From Acaryochloris thomasi RCC1774 (GTDB lineage: Bacteria; Cyanobacteriota; Cyanobacteriia; Thermosynechococcales; Thermosynechococcaceae), in NCBI RefSeq assembly GCF_003231495.1, contig NZ_PQWO01000001.1, positions 480,001-512,000 on the forward strand: a DNA stretch of 32,000 bases, given 5' to 3'. The translations under genes and the position numbers were made by a program. Below are positions 1,928 through 20,401 of this stretch, one piece after another. Numbering within the stretch: the stretch's first letter is position 1; the number at the start of each line of letters is the position of its first letter. A model generated the notes under the pieces. It saw only the letters and a list, made by a program, of their open reading frames with translations, made no database searches and was not told the origin of the DNA.

Positions 1928-2444
1928 GTACATAGCGGTATCTTGGCTATCTCCTCCTTTTGAGCTGTAAAACAACGAAATAGACAGCTCTGACGAGATA
2001 AAATCCCCATTAAAAGGCATAGGCGGCAATTTCCTGATATTTCCCAATTTTGATAATGTGTTGCTGTCGGCCTCAACGGATGACGAACTCGAGTTCGTAT
2101 GAGTGCTTAATGCAAGGTGATTTCAGCTCAGAGTCACTTGTCCCAAGGAGACTGCCGCATATATGCAACATTCATACTGAACGCTGTCTTGAAGCATCTT
2201 TAAACTGCTTTAGAAACCAGTGATGAATCTCTTCGATTCTGACAACTAGTGGATTCCAGAATTCAATCTATAGACTTTTTGGTAAGTTCTAATTGGCTAG
2301 TCACAAAAGTCAAGATCTGCTGACACTAATCGAGGTCTATTAGTATAAATAAACACTTATTCCTCTATGTCCCACTGATATAAAGTGCAAAGGACTTAAG
2401 AAAGAAATGGTGATTCTCTGTTTGTTTTGCAGAGCTTTTAATCA

Positions 2445-2472
2445 TTGAACTTGAGCAAAATAAAAATAGAAT
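2445..2472 (+). promoter_or_regulatory. Sigma70-type promoter for the riboswitch leader
   Basis: -35 TTGAAC (2445-2450), a 16-nt spacer, then -10 TAGAAT (2467-2472). The predicted start near 2479-2480 coincides with the first conserved aptamer nucleotides. Confidence 0.5.
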
Positions 2473-2479
2473 TTTGTGT

Positions 2480-2590
2480 CTAGGGTTCCAGCTTAATCTG
2501 TGGATTGAGTGTTTGGTCCAAGAGATACAGCCAGCAGGGCCTATATATTGCCTAGTCTGGTTCACGGAGGGATAAAAGCCCGGGAGAAGC
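2480..2590 (+). promoter_or_regulatory. ykkC-yxkD family riboswitch aptamer (guanidine-I-like)
   Basis: The conserved blocks occur in the right order: CTAGGGTTCC (2480-2489), GGTCCAAGAG (2515-2524; consensus GGUCCGAGAG) and ACGGAGGGATAAAAGCCCGGGAGA (2564-2587). Hairpin-forming segments lie between them. It sits about 90 nt upstream of a transporter gene. Confidence 0.85.
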
Positions 2591-2637
2591 CTGTTGACCT
2601 TTCATTGAGGTCGCCGGTTTTTTCCGGGCTTTGTTGT
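2578..2637 (+). terminator. Riboswitch expression platform: intrinsic terminator overlapping the aptamer 3' end
   Basis: Long imperfect hairpin. The outer stem is GCCCGG (2578-2583) with CCGGGC (2624-2629), and the inner stem is GACCT (2596-2600) with AGGTC (2608-2612). It is followed by TTTGTTGT (2630-2637). The 5' arm is the conserved GCCCGGGAGA of the aptamer, so the aptamer and terminator folds exclude each other (ON-switch logic). Confidence 0.65.
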
Positions 2638-2676
2638 AGCTATCAGTATGAATTTTCAATATTTGGAGACAAGTAA

Positions 2677-4176
2677 ATGGAACATACAGTTTTTTCCTGG
2701 GGAATTGTTACTTTTCTTTTGGGAACATTAGGCATCGGAGTTTGGGCTTCTAAGCAAATTAAAGGCGATAGCGTCAATTTTTTAGTGGCTGGCCGAGGAC
2801 TAGCTTTGCCATTGGCTGCTGCTACGCTAATGGCCCAGTCGATTGACTCCAACGCTACCTTGGGGAATACAGACTTATCTGCAGAATTTGGTTTTTGGGC
2901 GGGAGCTGCATTACCGATTGGATTATCTTTGTGCTTATTTTTAACGGCAACTTTTTTAGCTAAGCCCATGAATCGCATGGGGCTAATTACTATCCCCGAT
3001 TTTTATCGGGTTAAGTACGGTCGTACCGTCGAGCTGATCGCGGCCTGCATTATGTCGGTCAGCTTTTCGTTCCTGCTGGCGGGGAACCTCGTTGCGGGGG
3101 GCTTTATGTTCCAGACGTTTTTAGGGATGAGCTACGTCGGTGGCATTACGTTGCTGGCGACCCTGGTGTTTGCTTACACTGTGTCGGGTGGTCTCTTTGC
3201 AGTGGCTTATACCGATGCGATCCAAATTTTGATTGCTCTAGTCGGTACCTTGGGTTTGCTCGTTTACGTACTGGTTAATTTTGGCCTAGACATTGCGCCT
3301 GGCACTGGTCCTCTAGCTTTCGAGCAGTTGACGCTAGTCAGTTCAGGCGCTGCGGTTAATTGGGCCAGCCTGCTGGCATTGGGATTTGGCAATATGGTCG
3401 CGATTGACTTCATGGCTCGAATTTTTGCAGCAGAAAGCCCAGAAACTGCACAAAAAGCCTGTTATGTAGCCTCTGCTGGCACCTTAATTGTGGGGATTCC
3501 CTTTTCGATCATTGCTCTGTCTGCAAACAGCATCCTCGAACAGGCCGGTGTAGTCGCCGAGGGGCCAGTCCTGTTTGCCCTACTGCAAAACGTTGTGCCG
3601 CCTGTACTGGGCCTATTAGTATTGGCAGCTATTTTGTCGGCCTCTCTCTCCACAGCCGATGGAGCTATTTTAGGGACTTCTTCGGTATTGGCTCATAATG
3701 TCTTCGGTATTCGTCATGGAGCGACTCACGGAGGAGGGGGGGATCGGTTGCTCATTGTGACTCGCTTGGTAGCTATCGTGATCACCTTGCTGGGAGTATT
3801 TTTAGGTCTGCGGGTCCCTCAGACGGGCGTACTGCTGCTGCTGGGGTTTGACCTAGGCTTTGCGGGGCTGGTCGTCCCACTTCTGGGTGGGCTGTTCTGG
3901 GAGCGATCTACCCGCCAAGGAGCGTTGGCCTGCATCATTGCTGGGTCAATTACCCGGCTGACTCTGTTTGCGCTAGTGCCGACTATGTTTGGGATTGATA
4001 ATACGCTATTTCATATCCCCAATGCTCTCTTTACTACTGATTTCGACGGTTTTCCCACCCTAATCAGCCCAATTGTGGGTTTAGTTGCTTTTGTTGTCGT
4101 ATCTAGACAAACCTACAAGCCACTGACAGTTGAACAGCCGCAGGCAAAACTCCGAGAGAAAGCACGTGCTCTGTAG
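2677..4176 (+). CDS. Sodium:solute symporter (SSS/SSF) family transporter (499 aa)
   Basis: ATG at 2677 with GGAG at 2664-2667. The protein is polytopic. Its N-terminus, ...GIGVWASKQIKGDSVNFLVAGRGLALPLAAATLMAQSIDSNATLG..., is typical of SSS-family permeases, and about 13 hydrophobic segments are visible. Confidence 0.9.
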   Translation: MEHTVFSWGIVTFLLGTLGIGVWASKQIKGDSVNFLVAGRGLALPLAAATLMAQSIDSNATLGNTDLSAEFGFWAGAALPIGLSLCLFLTATFLAKPMNRMGLITIPDFYRVKYGRTVELIAACIMSVSFSFLLAGNLVAGGFMFQTFLGMSYVGGITLLATLVFAYTVSGGLFAVAYTDAIQILIALVGTLGLLVYVLVNFGLDIAPGTGPLAFEQLTLVSSGAAVNWASLLALGFGNMVAIDFMARIFAAESPETAQKACYVASAGTLIVGIPFSIIALSANSILEQAGVVAEGPVLFALLQNVVPPVLGLLVLAAILSASLSTADGAILGTSSVLAHNVFGIRHGATHGGGGDRLLIVTRLVAIVITLLGVFLGLRVPQTGVLLLLGFDLGFAGLVVPLLGGLFWERSTRQGALACIIAGSITRLTLFALVPTMFGIDNTLFHIPNALFTTDFDGFPTLISPIVGLVAFVVVSRQTYKPLTVEQPQAKLREKARAL

Positions 4177-4229
4177 ATCAGGTTGTTAAGACGAGCCATC
4201 TGAAAGGAAAATACTTCAAGACGAAACGA

Positions 4230-4263
4230 TGACTGATAACCCTTCTTGAGGGGTTATCAGTCA
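4230..4263. terminator. Perfect 13-bp stem hairpin between convergent genes
   Basis: TGACTGATAACCC (4230-4242), an 8-nt loop, then GGGTTATCAGTCA (4251-4263). It overlaps the stop codon of the minus-strand gene. There is no clear U-tract, so terminator function is inferred only. Confidence 0.4.
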
Positions 4264-4973
4264 TGACACAACATATCTGAAAGCTTTGGACTGGCCTCAA
4301 CTTCTTGTGTGATCACAACATTCCCCCCTGCTCCCCAAAGCAAGTTTTTCTCTGCCGTACTGCTTGGATACCACATGTTTAGATTTGAGACACCGAAGCA
4401 ATCGAGCTGCTGAGGGGAAGGGAGATAGGCGGGACGATTGAAAGCCACGGTAATCGTAGAGGAACGCTGCACAAGCTCAATATCAACGCCGAGGTTTTTG
4501 AAGAAAATGCTTTCTTGCTGGGCAAATGCAGCTAAGGAGTCGAGAAAGGCTTGATCAAACTGGCGGCGGTCATAGTAAAGCAGTGATGAGGACGGATTGC
4601 CATGAAAACCGACCCAAGAGCCTTTAGTAACGGTTTTATGAGCTGCTGCTACAAACCAATAGTTTGCGCACGATGAGCCACATCTGCCATCGACAATAAT
4701 ATTGAGCCGGCGTCTGTGAATCTCTTGACCGACCTGGAGAGCCGTGTCAGTGTCTCCCCCCCCCGACTGGACAACAACCGTTGTGATCTCAGGGGTGACG
4801 ATTTGCTTGAAGCTGGCTGCTGTTCGCTTATCTATTTGGCCGACAAACCGGAGGGTCTGCTCATTTACTTTCGTCCATCGACCGGGTGGCTCATTGCTCG
4901 CTGCTGGGCGGTGTGCATTTAAGGCACTGATCAACGTCAAAGATAGGATGACCTTTAGCTTGAACATTCTCAT
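4257..4973 (-). CDS. Exported hypothetical protein with ClpP/crotonase-like periplasmic domain (COG3904-like)
   Basis: The ATG at 4973 yields a signal-peptide-like N-terminus, MRMFKLKVILSLTLISALNA; the track start at 5009 is TTG. The motif pattern is SGGGDTDTALQVGQEI...RCGSSCANYWF...VGFHG. The family name is from memory. Confidence 0.65.
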   Translation of the reverse strand: MRMFKLKVILSLTLISALNAHRPAASNEPPGRWTKVNEQTLRFVGQIDKRTAASFKQIVTPEITTVVVQSGGGDTDTALQVGQEIHRRRLNIIVDGRCGSSCANYWFVAAAHKTVTKGSWVGFHGNPSSSLLYYDRRQFDQAFLDSLAAFAQQESIFFKNLGVDIELVQRSSTITVAFNRPAYLPSPQQLDCFGVSNLNMWYPSSTAEKNLLWGAGGNVVITQEVEASPKLSDMLCHD

Positions 4974-5109
4974 AGGGGCTGGAGAGATATAACCGGTTGG
5001 AGCTGACAACTCTTCAATCTTATGGGCATTGAGACAAAAGTTCTGATATCTAATACCAAATATGTATGACCTACATTGGAAGGGTCTCTATTGAGAGAGT
5101 ATTGTTCTG

Positions 5110-11132: not shown

Positions 11133-13229
11133 GTGCTCAGGAATCTCAGCATTCAGTCCAAGACGACTCTTATGTTGTTGGCCGTGAGCATCAGCTCGAT
11201 TTTGGTGATTGCCCTCATCGGTTATGAGAGCGGCAAAACAGCGCTCAGGCGCAGCATCTTTAATCAGCTCACTAGCCTACGAGAAGCTAAAATCCAGGAA
11301 CTGCAAGATCTCAGTCAACGGACGGATCGGCAGATTCACGTTCTGAGCATAAACCCTACACTGATTCAGGCTGCCCAGGCCTTTAAAGGCAGCTATAACG
11401 AGCTGACGAAGGCATCCATCCCGCCTCAGTGGAATATAGCCATTAGCCAGTACTACGAAAAAGAGTTCATCCCCAAGCTCGCAGAAAATTCTCAGGGCGA
11501 ACCCAACGCTGCAACCTATCAACCCTCTACCCCACAGGATCGATATCTGCAGTACCAGTACACGATTAAGTCCTCTGACTTTGAGGAAAAGGTATTAATT
11601 GATAATCCCCAAGACGGCAGCACCTTTAGCAAGGTACATCAGCAATTCCATCCTTTTTTACGGGAATATGTTGAAACCTATGAGCTAGAAGACTTATTTA
11701 TTATCGATCCAGAGACAGGCAATGTGGTCTACACCACCTATAAGGGAACTGATTTTGCGACCAATCTGAAGACCGGCCCATTCTCCGAGAGCGTACTTGC
11801 AAAGGCCTTTCGTAAGGTGGTCGAAGAAGGTGAAGATCAGTTCGTTGCGTTTGTCGATTTTGAACCCTATCGCCCCTCTCATAATGATCCAGCCGCGATT
11901 CAGGCGACGCCGGTTTTTAAGGACGGTAAAATGATTGCAGTGCTTGCTCTTCAGGCGTCTTCTGTGGAGTTGAATAACATTATGACCAGTCGCGCCCGCT
12001 GGAAGGAGGTAGGATTGGGCGATTCAGGTGAGACCTATGTTGTCGGGCCTGATTATTTTATGCGTTCTGACTCGCGCTTTTTGACAGAGGAGCCTGAAAA
12101 ATATTTCGCAGCTTTGGAAACACAGGGAGTACCTAAGTCTGAAATTGAGCGTATTCGAGAGCTGGAATCAACGATCTTAAATCAGGAAGTTAAGACCGAA
12201 GCTGTAGAGGCGGCCCTGCAGGGTCAGCGAGGCACTCGCATCGTTGATGATTATCGCGGCATTCCGGTCCTTAGTGCCTATGGGCCACTTGAGGGGGATC
12301 ATAACTGGGTCTTGCTGGCTGAAATTGACGAATCAGAAGCATTTGCCCCGATCCAAGCCTTCCAAAGGCGGGTCTTAATTACGACCGTTCTGATTGTTCT
12401 GGTCGTGACGCTAGCGGCTTTGCTGCTTTCTCATCTGTTCGTGCGGCCCATCCGCCTCTTAAACCAGGGCTTTGATCGGTTCAGCAAGGGCAACACTGAC
12501 GTCAAGGTCGAAATTGACTCTAAGGATGAGTTCCACGAGCTGGCGCAGTCTTTCAATCAAATGGTGCAGGTTCTGCAGAAAAAAACGCAGCAACTGCAGG
12601 AAACCAGTCAAGAAAACGAGGAATTATTGCTTAGCATCCTGCCGGGGCCGGTGGCTCAACGCATTAAGAAGGGAGAAGATAAGATTGCCGATAGCTTCCC
12701 CAACGTGACGGTTCTGTTTGCTGACCTCCTCGGCTTCTCTGACTTCGCAGAAACCGTCTCTGCGGATGAGACGGTGGCTTTGCTCAATGAATTGGTGAGT
12801 GCCTTTGATGAGGCGGCTGACCGGCACGGTGTTGAGAAAGTGAAGACCATTGGCAGTGGCTATATGGCCGTGAGCGGCCTCTCTGTCCCGAGGCTTGATC
12901 ACACCAAGCGCGTTGTCGATTTTGCCACGGAAATGGTGCAGATCGTCCAGCGATTTAATCAAACCCGTCAAACTCAGTTGCAGGCCCGGATTGGCGTTAA
13001 TTCTGGCCCCGTGGTCGCTGGAATCGTGGGACGCAGCAAGTTTATCTATGATTTATGGGGCGATACAGTCAACATCGCCCATCATATGCAGACGGAGGGC
13101 CAGGGCGACTCGATTCAGGTCACGGCCAGCATTCATGATCAGCTCAAAGATTTTTATGAGTTCCGTCATGTCAACGAGACTTCTCTGGGCAAGAAAGAGG
13201 GATTAGAGACTTGGCTAATCAAGGTATAA
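11133..13229 (+). CDS. Membrane sensor: dCache-like periplasmic domain, HAMP, class III nucleotide cyclase homology domain (698 aa)
   Basis: Two TM segments flank a periplasmic region of about 370 aa. The HAMP is VRPIRLLNQGFDRFSKGNTDVKVEIDSKDEFHELAQSFNQM. The cyclase core is VTVLFADLLGFS...VKTIGSGYMAVSG...RIGVNSGPVVAGIVG...YDLWGDTVNIAHHMQ. Start is GTG at 11133, with an alternative ATG at 11172. Confidence 0.9.
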   Translation: MLRNLSIQSKTTLMLLAVSISSILVIALIGYESGKTALRRSIFNQLTSLREAKIQELQDLSQRTDRQIHVLSINPTLIQAAQAFKGSYNELTKASIPPQWNIAISQYYEKEFIPKLAENSQGEPNAATYQPSTPQDRYLQYQYTIKSSDFEEKVLIDNPQDGSTFSKVHQQFHPFLREYVETYELEDLFIIDPETGNVVYTTYKGTDFATNLKTGPFSESVLAKAFRKVVEEGEDQFVAFVDFEPYRPSHNDPAAIQATPVFKDGKMIAVLALQASSVELNNIMTSRARWKEVGLGDSGETYVVGPDYFMRSDSRFLTEEPEKYFAALETQGVPKSEIERIRELESTILNQEVKTEAVEAALQGQRGTRIVDDYRGIPVLSAYGPLEGDHNWVLLAEIDESEAFAPIQAFQRRVLITTVLIVLVVTLAALLLSHLFVRPIRLLNQGFDRFSKGNTDVKVEIDSKDEFHELAQSFNQMVQVLQKKTQQLQETSQENEELLLSILPGPVAQRIKKGEDKIADSFPNVTVLFADLLGFSDFAETVSADETVALLNELVSAFDEAADRHGVEKVKTIGSGYMAVSGLSVPRLDHTKRVVDFATEMVQIVQRFNQTRQTQLQARIGVNSGPVVAGIVGRSKFIYDLWGDTVNIAHHMQTEGQGDSIQVTASIHDQLKDFYEFRHVNETSLGKKEGLETWLIKV

Positions 13230-13294
13230 CAAGCTAAATCGTCCATCTGCAATGCATTCGGAAGAATACTCTAAACCGATTCAAAACAAGAACA

Positions 13295-14752
13295 ATGATT
13301 GAAGCAATTCTTCAGCAACCCTGGCTTCTGTGGAGCATTGGGTTGATGGTGGGTTTCCCGCTAGCGATGGTGGGTCTCAACGAGGGGATTTTAAAGCTGC
13401 AGCGGCAGCGCAAAGCGCTCGCTAATACGCTCAAGATTATCCGTAACTGGGTGATGCCGACCCTCGTCCTGTTCTTATTCGTCACTCAGGTGATGGGATT
13501 AGATCCCGATTTAACCCCCATTCGCCTGGTGCAGACGCTGCTGCTGTTAGCCACCATGAATATGGGCCTATCGTTCGTCAACATCATGCTGTTTGTGGAG
13601 GCGGGGTCCAACACATGGCAGGCTCAGGTGCCCAAGCTGCTGCGGGATCTGGTGCGCTTTTTCCTGATTTTGATGGGGACAGCCCTGGTCCTTTCTCTTG
13701 TCTGGAAGACCGATCTAGGGGGCTTGATCACGGCTTTAGGCGTCAGCTCGATCGTTATCGGTCTGGCCCTTCAGGACACGCTGGGCAACTTATTTTCTGG
13801 GATTGCGCTGCTGTTTGGTCGTCCCTTTAAGGTGGGGGACTGGCTGCAGCTTGGCGAGACGGTGGGTAAGGTCAATGAGGTGAACTGGCGAGCGGTGCAT
13901 CTGATGACGCGCGAACAGGAGATGCTGATTATTCCAAACTCTGTACTGGCGAAGGAAATCTTTAAAAACTACAATCAACCGATCAAAATGCATGTGGAAC
14001 CCGTAGATGTCGGTTTTTCATACAACGATCCGCCCAATAAGGTTAAGCGGGTGATGTTGGAGGTGGCACTGGCGACGAAGGGCGTGCTAGAGAAGCCTCC
14101 CCCTGTGATTCAGACGATTAACTATAACGATTCTTCGATCGATTATCGGGTGCGATTATTCTTGGCTGACTATTCAAAAGTGCCGCAGATTCGCGATGAA
14201 TTTATGACAAGGGTTTGGTATGCCGCCAACCGCTATGGCTTGAATATTCCGTTCCCGATTCGGACTGTGTTTCATCAGCAAATGGAGCCTGCAAATCTCG
14301 AAACGGAACGCACAAGGATGCTGGAGGAGTTGCGATCGCTTCCTTCCTTTGCCATAGTCGAGTCAGATACCTTGACTGATTTGCTGCCCGATCTGGAAGT
14401 CAAAAGCTTTGGTCAAGGAGAAACAATCATCCGCCAAGGCGATACTGGCGTTAAACTTCACCTCATTCTCAAAGGTCAAGTTAAGGTTAGCGTCAACAAT
14501 CGGGGCCTTGAAACGGAAATCGATCGCTTTGCGCGGGGCGAATTTTTTGGCACCCTCACGCTCCTGAGCAACGAACCCACGCCTAACACTGTCATTGCCT
14601 TAGATGATCTGGAAGTTGTGGTGTTCGAAACCGAGGCACTTCATATTATGTTGGCTCGTACGCCCCGCCTCGCCCAAGAAATGGGAGCTGTCATTGAAGC
14701 TCGTCGTAGCGCCATTGAGTTAGTCCGGCAGCCCTCATCCCGAGTGGGTTAA
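13295..14752 (+). CDS. MscS-family mechanosensitive channel fused to a C-terminal cyclic-nucleotide-binding-like domain (485 aa)
   Basis: The MscS pore and beta-domain signature is GVSSIVIGLALQDTLGNLFSGIALLFGRPFKVGDWLQLG...GKVNEVNWRAVHL. The C-terminal CNB fold is FGQGETIIRQGDTGVKLHLILKGQVKV...RGEFFGTLTLL. It lies 65 nt downstream of the cyclase gene with no intervening terminator. Confidence 0.9.
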   Translation: MIEAILQQPWLLWSIGLMVGFPLAMVGLNEGILKLQRQRKALANTLKIIRNWVMPTLVLFLFVTQVMGLDPDLTPIRLVQTLLLLATMNMGLSFVNIMLFVEAGSNTWQAQVPKLLRDLVRFFLILMGTALVLSLVWKTDLGGLITALGVSSIVIGLALQDTLGNLFSGIALLFGRPFKVGDWLQLGETVGKVNEVNWRAVHLMTREQEMLIIPNSVLAKEIFKNYNQPIKMHVEPVDVGFSYNDPPNKVKRVMLEVALATKGVLEKPPPVIQTINYNDSSIDYRVRLFLADYSKVPQIRDEFMTRVWYAANRYGLNIPFPIRTVFHQQMEPANLETERTRMLEELRSLPSFAIVESDTLTDLLPDLEVKSFGQGETIIRQGDTGVKLHLILKGQVKVSVNNRGLETEIDRFARGEFFGTLTLLSNEPTPNTVIALDDLEVVVFETEALHIMLARTPRLAQEMGAVIEARRSAIELVRQPSSRVG

Positions 14753-17360: not shown

Positions 17361-19760
17361 ATGAACGATCTCAACCTTATCGCTACGCCTGAAGGAATTC
17401 GGCGGGCTGAGATTGCCCTGATAGAGATGCAGTTAACTAAGACCAAGTTGGCAGAGCGACTGGGATTAACTCGTCCACCAATAAGCAAGTTTTTCAATGG
17501 CAAGACGATTAGAAATGAGAACTTTGTGACGATTTGCAAGACATTAGGGCTTGACTGGCGGATCGTGTGCGGTCTGCAACAGATTGAGACAGTTACTGAT
17601 CAAGCAGCTCAAGCTCCTAAAGATGAAGATTCACTTGAGAAGATTATTCAGAATATTCGAGATGATATTCGGCCAAGAATCACAAGAAATCACGGGAAAA
17701 TAAAAGTTTTAAATCTTGAAAAGCCTATTGACTTAGATGATATCTATATCAGCATTAATATCCTGGAAAAGGTAACTAGACGTAAACAACTAGAATTCAT
17801 CGAAATAATGAGGAGAAAGCCATACGACGAAGTCAATCTAACATACGAAAACGTCGAAGTTATGATTCGACAGCCAATATATCCTGATGATGTCGATCGT
17901 TTCAGTCGTGGCCCAATTAAGGAGAAACACGTACCAATTTTAGATGCAGTTAGAGATTACAAGAATCTATTAGTTCTGGGAAAGCCTGGATCTGGAAAAA
18001 CAACTTTACTGAAGTATCTTGCAGTTCAGTGTATTAGAGCAGGAATTAAATCTCAATGCATTCCCATACTCATAACTTTAAAAGAATTTTCTGAAGCCAA
18101 GGGTCAGCCTAGCTTATTAGAATATATACGCCAAGATTTTCTAGATAAAGAGAGAAAATATCTCGAAAAGCTTCTAATCAACGGGAATATATTGATTCTA
18201 TTAGATGGATTAGATGAGGTTTATGTTTCTGATATATCTAGAGTGACGACAGAGATAAAGAAATTCTCAGAAAAATACATCGAGAATAGTTGCATAGTTA
18301 CCTGCCGTATTGCAGCAGAAGAACACAACCTAAACTTTATAGATATAGAAATTGATGATTTGGAAGATCCAGAGATTAAAGCTTTTGCCACGAAGTGGTT
18401 TTGCAGGAATAAGAGCAAAATCAATGCAGACGATTTTCTGAAGCAATTAAAGAGTAACTCGCAAATTCTAGAGCTTGCGAAAACTCCCAAACTATTAGCA
18501 TTGCTATGCTTGATTTTTGAAGATCTAGGCAAATTCCCACATGATCGCTCAAGACTATACCGTGATGCTGTCAAAACCCTAGTTAAGCAAGAGAAAAGGG
18601 AAAAAAATGGCAGCACACTTTATACAGAGCTTTCAATAGGACAGAAAGAAAAATTATTTAGCTATATTGCCTACGTATCATTCGTGGAAGAAAAATATTT
18701 TTTTGACGTTGACTATGCAAAAAAAATAATTAAAAAATTCCTCATAGAATCATCTGTGCCAAATTTAGACAGACTAGATATCGATAGGTTTATGAATTAT
18801 ATCCAAGCTCAGAATGGGTTAATTGTAGAACGCGCACATGAAGTATATTCATTTTCCCATCTGACTTTTCATGAGTATTTTGTCTCAAGAGAAATCGTCG
18901 AAAGCACTCACAGAGAATTATTATTACTTAATCTATCTCGAAAAATCTTAGAGAGTCGTTGGAAAGAAGTTATTTTGCTCGTTTCTGAAATGATCCCAGA
19001 GATAGACACTTTTTTACTGAATATTAAGCATGTAATTGATAACTCAATATCAGAGGATCAGGATATACAGAAGTTTGTTAAATGGATATATAAAAGAGCA
19101 AGTCATGAAAGTGATTTATATAAGAAAGCAGCGATCCGGGCTTTCTACTGGGGAACGGTAGGTTATGGTTGCTGTTACGCAGAAGAAATAGCTCATGCTT
19201 TTGAACTAAATTATTCTAGTTTTTCTAATTTAGACAGCATACTGATCTTCTTACTGCTTCGTTCAAAAAGTTTAGATACTCAGGGCTTGTGGGATCTTTG
19301 GGCTGAAACTAACCTTTTCGATTATAACCGTGCTGCTTGGTCCAGGGAGTTAATTCAAGCTATTGATGTAGCCCTTTCACTTTTGTATGACCTTGATTAT
19401 TCTGTATGGAGTGCTTTGCAAAAACTTAGAGAAAATCTAACTGAATTTGAATCGTCAGATAGCGATACAGTATGGGATGAGTGGTGGCAAAGCAATGGTT
19501 CGAGTTGGGTATCTAAATTGAATGTAGCTCTGACTTCATATCTTGAAGCTGATATCTATGGAATTCATAGTGGTTTTAATAATGCCCAAACAAATTCCAT
19601 AATTAAATACTTGGAGGCTAATGCGATCCTTGTTGCTTGTTTAAAAAAATCGTCCGATACTAATTCTACAGTTCGAGAAGAAATTGAAAATACACTGCTG
19701 CTACCTATTATCGAGATTAAAAGCTATAAATCATTCAAGAAGAAAGATATAAAACAGTAA
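17361..19760 (+). CDS. HTH-NACHT STAND NTPase with uncharacterised C-terminal helical region (799 aa)
   Basis: N-terminal XRE-like HTH: LTKTKLAERLGLTRPPISKFFNGKTIRNENFVTICKTLGLDW. Walker A is LLVLGKPGSGKTTLL (about aa 203-217) and Walker B is ILILLDGLDEV (about aa 277-287). CIVTCR and the winged-helix signature FSHLTFHEYF are typical of NACHT modules. The C-terminal 280 aa or so show no WD40, TPR or other repeat I can recognise. Confidence 0.88.
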   Translation: MNDLNLIATPEGIRRAEIALIEMQLTKTKLAERLGLTRPPISKFFNGKTIRNENFVTICKTLGLDWRIVCGLQQIETVTDQAAQAPKDEDSLEKIIQNIRDDIRPRITRNHGKIKVLNLEKPIDLDDIYISINILEKVTRRKQLEFIEIMRRKPYDEVNLTYENVEVMIRQPIYPDDVDRFSRGPIKEKHVPILDAVRDYKNLLVLGKPGSGKTTLLKYLAVQCIRAGIKSQCIPILITLKEFSEAKGQPSLLEYIRQDFLDKERKYLEKLLINGNILILLDGLDEVYVSDISRVTTEIKKFSEKYIENSCIVTCRIAAEEHNLNFIDIEIDDLEDPEIKAFATKWFCRNKSKINADDFLKQLKSNSQILELAKTPKLLALLCLIFEDLGKFPHDRSRLYRDAVKTLVKQEKREKNGSTLYTELSIGQKEKLFSYIAYVSFVEEKYFFDVDYAKKIIKKFLIESSVPNLDRLDIDRFMNYIQAQNGLIVERAHEVYSFSHLTFHEYFVSREIVESTHRELLLLNLSRKILESRWKEVILLVSEMIPEIDTFLLNIKHVIDNSISEDQDIQKFVKWIYKRASHESDLYKKAAIRAFYWGTVGYGCCYAEEIAHAFELNYSSFSNLDSILIFLLLRSKSLDTQGLWDLWAETNLFDYNRAAWSRELIQAIDVALSLLYDLDYSVWSALQKLRENLTEFESSDSDTVWDEWWQSNGSSWVSKLNVALTSYLEADIYGIHSGFNNAQTNSIIKYLEANAILVACLKKSSDTNSTVREEIENTLLLPIIEIKSYKSFKKKDIKQ

Positions 19761-19782
19761 GCTCATTAAAATCTATAAAATC

Positions 19783-20073
19783 ATGAGAAGAGAACAAGTC
19801 ATTAACATCCTGAAGCAATATGAACAGAATATCAAGGACTTCGGCATTAGATCTGTTTCTGTTTTCGGTTCGGTAGCCCGCGATGAAGCTCATCTAGATA
19901 GTGATATTGATATCCTTGTTGACTTTTTAGAAGCACCTACCTTTGATCGCTATATGGATCTTAAGTTTTACCTCGAAGACTGCTTTGGACAAAGTGTTGA
20001 CTTAGTGAGCTACAAAATGCTGAAGCCTCAAATTCGGCAAGCTGTCGAGAAGGAAGCCATTCGTGTCGCGTAG
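19783..20073 (+). CDS. mntA: MntA-type nucleotidyltransferase antitoxin (96 aa)
   Basis: Minimal NTase motif GSVARDEAHLDSDIDILV (GSxxR...DxD). It lies 22 nt downstream of the NACHT gene and overlaps the next gene by 11 nt. Confidence 0.88.
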   Translation: MRREQVINILKQYEQNIKDFGIRSVSVFGSVARDEAHLDSDIDILVDFLEAPTFDRYMDLKFYLEDCFGQSVDLVSYKMLKPQIRQAVEKEAIRVA

Positions 20074-20401
20074 TGTTCAGCTTTACCTTGAAGATATTTG
20101 CGCAAGTTGCACTAAAGTACAGCGCTACACTCTAAATATGACTTTTGAAGGCTTTATAGAAGACGAACGGACTTATGATGCAGTTGTTCGCAACTTACAA
20201 ATTATCGGCGAAGCCGTCAAGAAAATTCCTCCTGATATTCGCGAACAGTATCCAACCGTGGAGTGGAGGAAGATTGCTGGTCTTCGCGATATTTTAGCCC
20301 ATGCCTACTTTAGTCTTGAAGACGAGACACTTTGGGATGTTGTGCTGAATAAAGTACCAGAACTATTCGAGCAAATTCAGCTCGTTATCCAAGAAAATTA
20401 A
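20063..20401 (+). CDS. hepT: HepT-type HEPN (DUF86) RNase toxin (112 aa)
   Basis: The HEPN Rx4H motif occurs in AGLRDILAHAY, together with IIGEAVKKIP. GTG start at 20063. This is the classic MNT-HEPN gene order and size. Confidence 0.88.
   Translation: MSRSVQLYLEDICASCTKVQRYTLNMTFEGFIEDERTYDAVVRNLQIIGEAVKKIPPDIREQYPTVEWRKIAGLRDILAHAYFSLEDETLWDVVLNKVPELFEQIQLVIQEN

Follow-up and report, generated by a model that had tools for sequence, protein, structure and literature searches.

A candidate Na+:guanidinium symporter gene behind a predicted guanidine-I riboswitch in Acaryochloris thomasi RCC1774

In the cyanobacterium Acaryochloris thomasi RCC1774, a guanidine-I (ykkC subtype 1) aptamer lies directly upstream of a gene for a permease of the sodium:solute symporter (SSS) family. 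We consider it quite probable that this region is a guanidine-I ON switch for one SSS gene, whose product would import guanidinium together with Na+ as a nitrogen source. All coordinates are positions in the window, the whole 32-kb stretch of DNA analysed, with strands given GenBank-style (+/-); the features are collected in Table 1. When a single genome was scanned for each species, 483 genomes proved to encode relatives of the permease, and the best 80 loci were analysed, all of them cyanobacterial and 68-90% identical to the window permease. Since these are the best 80 of 483, the frequencies reported for them hold for the closest orthologues only.

The original prediction had recognised a ykkC/guanidine-I-like RNA from its conserved blocks, and a covariance search bore this out. 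RF00442 matched over its full length (model 1-107/107) with 77.0 bits against a gathering threshold of 63 (Rfam 15, E 2.9e-12 over the 32-kb window) and was the sole Rfam family in the window. A permissive scan of 2400-2720 returned, besides RF00442, just one meaningless long non-coding RNA match. Our own covariance model R1, built from 32 upstream regions and then run on all 80 loci, scored the window aptamer at 102.6 bits. The block ACGGAGGGATAAAAGCCCGGGAGA is present at 2564-2587, as claimed. The Dickeya dadantii structure gives a numbering that can be mapped onto the conserved blocks (PMC5340920), so that C6-C15 correspond to 2480-2489, G30-G39 to 2515-2524 and C64-G87 to 2563-2586. By this mapping all ligand contacts are kept: G37/A38 (G2522/A2523), G67 (G2566), the phosphate of G68 (G2567) and G85 (G2584). 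The C64-G84 pair (C2563-G2583) and the tetra-A loop (A2574-2577) are also intact. The sole departure from the consensus is an A in place of G35, at 2520, giving GGUCCAAGAG where the consensus has GGUCCGAGAG. The 77 related cyanobacterial copies have A here in 31 cases and G in 36, and the A form also occurs in leaders of gdmH, the gene for the Ni-dependent guanidine hydrolase (guanidinase) GdmH; it is thus a normal variant.

Over the same 77 copies, helices P1/P1a, P2 and P3 were paired in 95.8% of cells, compared with 26-50% when the partners were slid. Both sides vary in 17 of the 26 aptamer pairs, and RNAalifold found compensatory change in 14 of the 26. The expression platform shows similar constraint. 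The long hairpin with a U-tail that had been proposed to reuse the 3' strand of the aptamer was found at 2575-2632 (58 nucleotides, nt), overlapping the 3' strand of P3 and followed by UUUGUUGU up to 2637. Its energy is -38.3 kcal/mol (z = -6.4), and none of 200 shuffles of the region 2570-2645 folded equally well. In all 54 orthologous leaders compared, AAAAGCCCGGGAGRA pairs with a downstream YCUCYCGGGCUUUU followed by a U-rich tail, with compensatory changes, while the apical hairpin varies freely. A conserved terminator competing with P3 is the architecture expected of an ON switch, and the expression platform is predicted to be of this terminator-based kind. The alignments thus place both aptamer and terminator under clear purifying selection with covariation. 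GGAG is found at the Shine-Dalgarno site in most orthologues. Judged by these features, the window RNA is predicted to be a typical guanidine-I ON switch; it adds an ordinary new example to a class already well known. Guanidine-I riboswitches have already been validated in the Cyanobacteria; the novelty lies in the transporter, not in the riboswitch.

Table 1. Features of the riboswitch-permease region in the A. thomasi window
Feature	Position	Strand	Remarks
NtcA-like box GTATAAATAAACAC	2343-2356	+	one base off GTA-N8-TAC; GT-N10-AC kept
Extended -10 TGATATAAA	2376-2384	+	putative NtcA-dependent promoter; predicted start near 2390
Sigma-70-like match TTGAAC-16-TAGAAT	2445-2472	+	9/12 positions; second promoter or chance match
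Guanidine-I (ykkC subtype 1) aptamer	2469-2588	+	RF00442; P1 from 2476; P3 and A-loop 2563-2586
Aptamer conserved block CUAGGGUUCC	2480-2489	+	matched to Dickeya numbering
Aptamer conserved block GGUCCAAGAG	2515-2524	+	matched to Dickeya numbering
Intrinsic terminator	2575-2637	+	5' arm 2575-2591 (3' half of P3 and tail) pairs with 2616-2632; U-rich tail 2630-2637
Shine-Dalgarno GGAGA	2665-2669	+	7 nt before ATG, read from sequence
SSS-family permease, 499 aa, candidate Na+:guanidinium symporter	2677-4176	+	PF00474
14-bp hairpin	4229-4264	.	minus-strand terminator-like site between convergent genes
Convergent next gene	4257-5009	-	open reading frame list of window

The permease matched the solute:sodium symporter family PF00474 (SSF, TC 2.A.21) over the entire profile (1-406/406) with 119.8 bits against a threshold of 22.8 (E 1.7e-34). 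TIGR00813 gave 112 bits, under its superfamily cut-off of 184, and no NCBIfam equivalog or subfamily cut-off (PutP, PanF, ActP or VC_2705 type) was reached, the best being PutP with 113 against 515.5 bits. The protein is 100% identical to an A. thomasi RCC1774 protein annotated 'Sodium/proline symporter'. About a dozen full-length relatives, counted as 50%-identity clusters, stand above the generic SSS level, and at this cluster level the family has few members outside the cyanobacteria. The original prediction had also named the permease as the only gene downstream of the riboswitch, and the gene order agrees: the next gene (4257-5009) runs on the minus strand, so the permease forms a single-gene unit. 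The hairpin at 4229-4264 probably marks the 3' end of this plus-strand transcription unit.

Among the closest orthologues, the R1 search placed a guanidine-I aptamer before the permease in 65 of the 80 loci. In 59 it lies directly upstream of the permease (54 at 75-114 bits, four weaker and one cut by a contig end), in six it stands at the head of a gdmH-hypA-hypB-SSS operon, and in the remaining 15 none was found upstream. The weak aptamers (35-63 bits in R1; L047 3785-3906, L061 3788-3906, L051 3786-3884 and L056 3783-3905) have broken conserved blocks; in some genomes of Nodosilinea and Leptolyngbya they may represent riboswitches in decay.

The same loci link the permease to guanidine degradation. 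An arginase-family (gdmH) gene lies within 4 kb of the permease in 18 of the 80 loci, divergent in 11 and upstream on the same strand in seven, usually with hypA and hypB. The seven same-strand loci share the order gdmH-hypA-hypB-SSS, with a riboswitch at the head in six; where the two genes are divergent, gdmH carries a guanidine-I aptamer of its own. The protein from one locus (L077) matched Synechocystis GdmH (7ESR/7OI1) with E 6.6e-242, against 2e-50 for the next family. Across the 80 loci no conserved partner other than gdmH, hypA and hypB emerged; other recurrent neighbours, such as a two-component system, HisG and an aminotransferase, were set aside as lineage-specific synteny. Two paralogues exist in Acaryochloris marina. 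The copy on plasmid pREB7 (L024/L081, 41567-45612; 87-88% identity) has a riboswitch, and this riboswitch-SSS unit is placed immediately downstream of a gene for an ammonium transporter, with an IS6 transposase next to it; the chromosomal copy (L069, 70%) lacks the riboswitch.

The region upstream of the aptamer suggests nitrogen control. We took as a class II NtcA promoter a GTA-N8-TAC box near -41.5, about 22 nt before a -10 of the TAN3T type. In the window GTATAAATAAACAC and TGATATAAA are separated by 19 nt, with 22 nt between the box and the TATAAA hexamer. This putative NtcA promoter (2343-2384) is situated some 135 nt upstream of the aptamer, and its predicted start near 2390 would give the transcript about 85 nt of non-conserved leader ahead of the aptamer. 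Among related sources with the full 500 nt upstream of the permease, 42 of 77 contain a perfect GTA-N8-TAC in that stretch, compared with just 1-3 of about 75 for any other 500-nt control window. In almost every such locus the perfect box is found 121-197 nt upstream of P1, and the imperfect box of A. thomasi occupies the corresponding place. TGnTAnnAn follows the NtcA box by 19-22 nt in about 40 orthologous loci, with G40, T42 and A43 invariant (alignment A4). As read from these alignments, box and -10 have the layout of NtcA-activated promoters, as reported for Synechocystis gdmH (PMC12704784). Two loci lacking a riboswitch, L054 (Prochloron didemni, 3801-3845) and L060 (3886-3899), carry perfect NtcA boxes immediately upstream of the permease; Prochloron has two of them, in an intergenic region common to a divergent gdmH. 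Control in both loci appears to have shifted to NtcA alone.

The promoter of the original prediction fared less well. The TTGAAC-16-TAGAAT pair does sit at 2445-2472, but it is not conserved and occurs at the frequency expected from shuffled sequence. Two promoter-like sites of such strength were found where shuffling predicts 2.1. A sigma-70-like pair abutting P1 was present in 5 of 54 orthologous loci (1.0 +/- 1.0 in shuffles) and the -10 alone in 17 against 16.9 expected, and we rejected the pair as a conserved element. The orthologue alignment contained no conserved sequence in the leader that separates the aptamer from the putative NtcA promoter. A small terminator-like hairpin (CTCTG-loop-CAGAG, 2416-2434, then CTTTTAAT) lies in this part of the leader and showed no conservation in orthologous leaders.

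The link to guanidine extends to homologues of 48-51% identity in Mycobacterium, Rubrobacter and Nonomuraea. Mycobacterium sp. IDR2000157661 (CP081006.1) has a 51%-identical SSS gene behind a guanidine-I aptamer of 73.9 bits, and on the divergent side a guanidine-III aptamer (63.7 bits) precedes an orthologue of the Nitrospira inopinata guanidinase (9FEK, E 5e-153). A single intergenic region of 390 bp (L083, 4621-4975) thus contains two guanidine riboswitch classes in back-to-back arrangement, guanidine-III heading a guanidinase and CN-hydrolase operon and guanidine-I heading the SSS permease. The SSS leader of this locus has a ribosome-binding site directly after the aptamer and no terminator. 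A Rubrobacter indicoceani plasmid carries guanidine-I (75.7 bits), GdmH and SSS in order, beside formamidase and urease genes. The Rfam family '5' ureB sRNA' also scored 92 bits on this plasmid (L090, 7874-8163), antisense within the urease cluster; this match probably stems from the conservation of the urease coding sequence and not from a genuine small RNA. In Nonomuraea gerenzanensis the GdmH and SSS genes are adjacent and divergent. On two haloarchaeal megaplasmids, Haloarcula marismortui pNG700 (L092) and Halalkalicoccus jeotgali plasmid 1 (L093), a 55%-identical SSS gene lies 2-3 kb from an 'agmatinase family' gene, and pNG700 also has genes for an APC permease and a formamidase in the vicinity. 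Because the Haloarcula ureohydrolase is only weakly GdmH-like, we count the haloarchaeal linkage as a hint. No guanidine riboswitch was found in the locus of an Altiarchaeales protein or in those of three metagenomic relatives (40-44% identity). Two SSS relatives of 41-43% identity, in Rhodococcus sp. SGAir0479 (L082, 3131-6500) and in L088 (2216-5542), lie directly downstream of DIOX_N/2-oxoglutarate (2OG)-Fe(II) oxygenase genes, and no riboswitch was found in either locus. The Rhodococcus locus has an additional gene for a 258-aa hypothetical protein, and L088 has a DUF1989 gene nearby. This arrangement recalls the methylguanidine hydroxylase/lyase pair MgdH/MgdL (PMC12508155).

Taken together, these comparisons tie the permease clade to guanidine in four independent ways: guanidine-I control, GdmH linkage, NtcA-type control, and urease or ammonium transporter neighbours. 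Direct guanidine-I control is predicted in two phyla, as is membership of a GdmH operon or adjacency to GdmH. We regard it as likely that the permease is a Na+-coupled guanidinium importer serving assimilation. This direction of transport is suggested by the guanidine linkage and by the way characterised SSS carriers work, the inward Na+ gradient driving uptake in them (PMC7918813). The original prediction had already suggested an importer, pointing to the DUR3 urea transporters within the family. Support for the idea comes from the aptamers (65/80 loci), gdmH (18/80) and the linkage in three actinobacterial genera, not from the DUR3 kinship argument.

The substrate site was compared with that of solved relatives. 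The nearest are CHT1 and vSGLT, with CHT1, a high-affinity, Na+/Cl--dependent choline transporter, closest (residues 9-428, E 4e-27, 98 bits only). CHT1 sites were taken from PMC11589582 and transferred by profile alignment. An AlphaFold model from a 14-sequence alignment reached a pLDDT (predicted local distance difference test) of 48 and was not used, so the site mapping rests on the alignment. The Na2 ligands are kept, CHT1 A60, V63, A343, S346 and S347 corresponding to A53, I56, A322, S325 and T326; they are invariant in the clade except position 56, which is I in the window and V in most orthologues. The Na3 aspartates (D180 and D328) are kept as well. CHT1 (SLC5A7) belongs to the same family, has similar Na2 and Na3 sites and carries a small organic cation, as the permease is proposed to do. 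By contrast, its choline site is not preserved. This has six aromatic residues around it, four of which form a cation-pi cage (PMC11589582), and W62, Y67, Y91, W141, W254 and W406 of CHT1 are replaced by S55, A60, L83, L133, A242 and L387 in the permease. The Cl- loop VGGGY of CHT1 is likewise absent, reading I-D-S-N-A in the window and V-D-S-N-A in most orthologues. In place of these elements the permease has invariant Asp57 and Asp244, which the CHT1 alignment puts in the unwound segments of transmembrane helices (TM) 1 and 6. These unwound segments take part in binding the substrate of SSS proteins (PMC7918813). The site residues fit a small cation held by carboxylates. On balance we favour a dedicated Na+:guanidinium SSS subfamily in Cyanobacteria and Actinomycetota, perhaps also in haloarchaea, which would be the usual transport partner of the Ni-dependent GdmH and in which the Asp residues of unwound TM1 and TM6 would replace the aromatic cage of CHT1.

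In the proposed mechanism, transcription would begin near 2390, from the NtcA-type promoter (2343-2356 and 2376-2384), or else from the sigma-70-like match (2445-2472). When guanidine is absent, 2575-2591 would pair with 2616-2632, and the resulting terminator with UUUGUUGU would stop transcription before the gene. Guanidine bound in the pocket (G2522/A2523, G2566, the G2567 phosphate and G2584) would stabilise P3 and A-loop docking and block the terminator, allowing the mRNA to be completed. Combined with NtcA this would form an AND gate for nitrogen limitation and guanidine, the same logic as described for Synechocystis gdmH.

Several observations weigh against this interpretation. Both the RNA and the permease are known here from sequence alone. 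The window contains no gdmH, gimABC or other guanidine gene within its 32 kb, and A. thomasi is not among the best 120 of the 4951 matches to a related GdmH query. Its NtcA box carries one mismatch. The 15 of 80 loci without an upstream riboswitch also count here; among them, L053 and L064 have too little upstream sequence and the gdmH-hypA-hypB operon of L078 runs off the locus. Further out, relatives of 35-44% identity have no guanidine context or lie beside 2OG-oxygenase genes. The residues D57, D244 and D392 are common to the wider clade of 35-51% identity, and the acidic residues are therefore not specific to the guanidine-linked members. Finally, an inducible importer of a toxic solute is a positive-feedback design, although the same has been proposed for the APC permease that a riboswitch controls in comammox Nitrospira (PMC11410670).

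The riboswitch could be as described and the permease could still carry a related compound, such as methylguanidine, a small guanidino or ureido compound, or urea as the product of GdmH. SSS proteins do cover chemically diverse substrates (PMC7918813), and the 41-43% relatives behind 2OG-Fe(II) oxygenase genes would suit such a substrate, but guanidine-I aptamers are guanidine-specific and discriminate against methylguanidine (PMC12508155). The tightest partner of the permease, GdmH, acts on free guanidine. As for urea, cyanobacteria already import it through an ABC system, and its export would be unfit for a Na+ symporter under nitrogen-limitation control. A substrate other than guanidine is thus unlikely. 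The same assimilatory context bears on whether the permease might export guanidine for detoxification, as Gdx/SugE do. Many genes behind guanidine riboswitches encode exporters, Gdx/SugE being the commonest cargo, and no degradation gene lies near the permease in the window. However, the Na2 site is kept here, in a family whose characterised members rely on the inward Na+ gradient for uptake (PMC7918813), and moving a cation and Na+ outward would oppose the membrane potential. The gdmH-hypA-hypB operon, the conserved NtcA boxes and the presence of urease and ammonium transporter genes as neighbours are all signs of assimilation, and an exporter is quite improbable.

It is harder still to credit an aptamer of ykkC subtype 2, binding guanosine tetraphosphate (ppGpp), phosphoribosyl pyrophosphate (PRPP) or a nucleoside diphosphate, or a decayed copy, either of which would leave the transporter unrelated to guanidine. 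The fold is common to subtype 2 and few positions differ, but subtype-2 RNAs have pyrimidines at the positions of Dickeya G67 and A38 (PMC5340920). The corresponding residues of the window, G2566 and A2523, are purines, and with the pocket Gs and A-loop intact, the caveat about subtype 2 that accompanied the original prediction is settled in favour of subtype 1. Gene context agrees, since it is that of guanidine metabolism (GdmH and nitrogen assimilation) and not of purine or amino-acid biosynthesis. Decay might be read from the one consensus deviation, GGUCCAAGAG for GGUCCGAGAG; this G-to-A variant is however shared by 31 of 77 cyanobacterial copies, gdmH leaders included, and neither subtype 2 nor decay sits well with purifying selection and covariation across aptamer and terminator. 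Import of guanidinium under guanidine-I control thus remains the interpretation we prefer.

The closest known counterpart of the regulatory region is the leader of gdmH (sll1077) in Synechocystis sp. PCC 6803. It belongs to RF00442, comes from the same phylum, has a proposed terminator ON mechanism and combines an upstream NtcA box with the guanidine aptamer, as in the window (PMC12704784). It differs in controlling gdmH-ghaA-ghaB rather than a single SSS permease. The window further differs in the mismatch of its NtcA box and in its non-conserved leader of ~85 nt, and is characterised only at the sequence level. For the transporter, the functional counterpart is GimABC (Sll1080-1082) of Synechocystis, which is gdmH-associated, under nitrogen control and takes up guanidine for assimilation, as proposed here (PMC12704784). 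GimABC is a validated ATP-driven ABC importer whose binding protein has a dissociation constant of ~97 nM, whereas the window encodes a predicted single-subunit, Na+-coupled carrier of the LeuT fold with no sequence relation to it. The APC permease of the comammox bacterium Nitrospira inopinata is, like ours, a secondary transporter behind guanidine-I; it lies next to a guanidinase and is predicted to import guanidine (PMC11410670). Going by its description, it is set apart as an amino acid/polyamine/organocation (APC) protein thought to use proton symport, whereas the window permease belongs to PF00474 and has an Na2 site. PutP, PanF and ActP share the Pfam family and overall length of the permease, but its scores lie far under their equivalog cut-offs.

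Guanidine importers have only lately come into view. An October 2025 paper noted no study yet on them (PMC12508155); GimABC was validated in December 2025 (PMC12704784), and the comammox Nitrospira APC permease has been predicted (PMC11410670). The authors of the GimABC study postulate a second, as yet unidentified guanidine uptake route in cyanobacteria (PMC12704784). Neither the full-text literature we searched nor a 2021 review of prokaryotic SSS proteins ties an SSS transporter to guanidine, gdmH or ykkC, although a mention in older gene-association lists is possible. After GimABC and the APC permease of comammox Nitrospira, the SSS permease is likely a third type of guanidine importer. 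Its family recurs with guanidine switches and with GdmH in both cyanobacteria and actinobacteria and probably represents a system for guanidine uptake that has not been described before. A Na+:guanidinium SSS subfamily may be an uptake route of the ATP-independent kind that has been postulated for cyanobacteria.

That guanidine is a real source of nitrogen was recognised only recently, and this conserved permease is a concrete and readily testable importer candidate. If the assignment is true, hundreds of 'sodium/proline symporter' annotations need correcting, and a secondary-active route would join guanidine-cycling models for marine and soil cyanobacteria. It would also provide a one-gene uptake module with a compact riboswitch for guanidine-based gene control.

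Two other gene groups of the window were recorded. At 11133-14752 a gene for a HAMP-adenylate/guanylate cyclase (698 aa) is directly followed by one for an MscS-type channel with a C-terminal cyclic-nucleotide-binding domain; the two may form a pair of cyclase and cyclic nucleotide-gated channel. At 17361-20401 a 799-aa HTH-NACHT (STAND NTPase) gene precedes an open reading frame of 112 aa for a HepT-like ribonuclease toxin, and this pair looks like a defence-related or toxin-antitoxin cluster.

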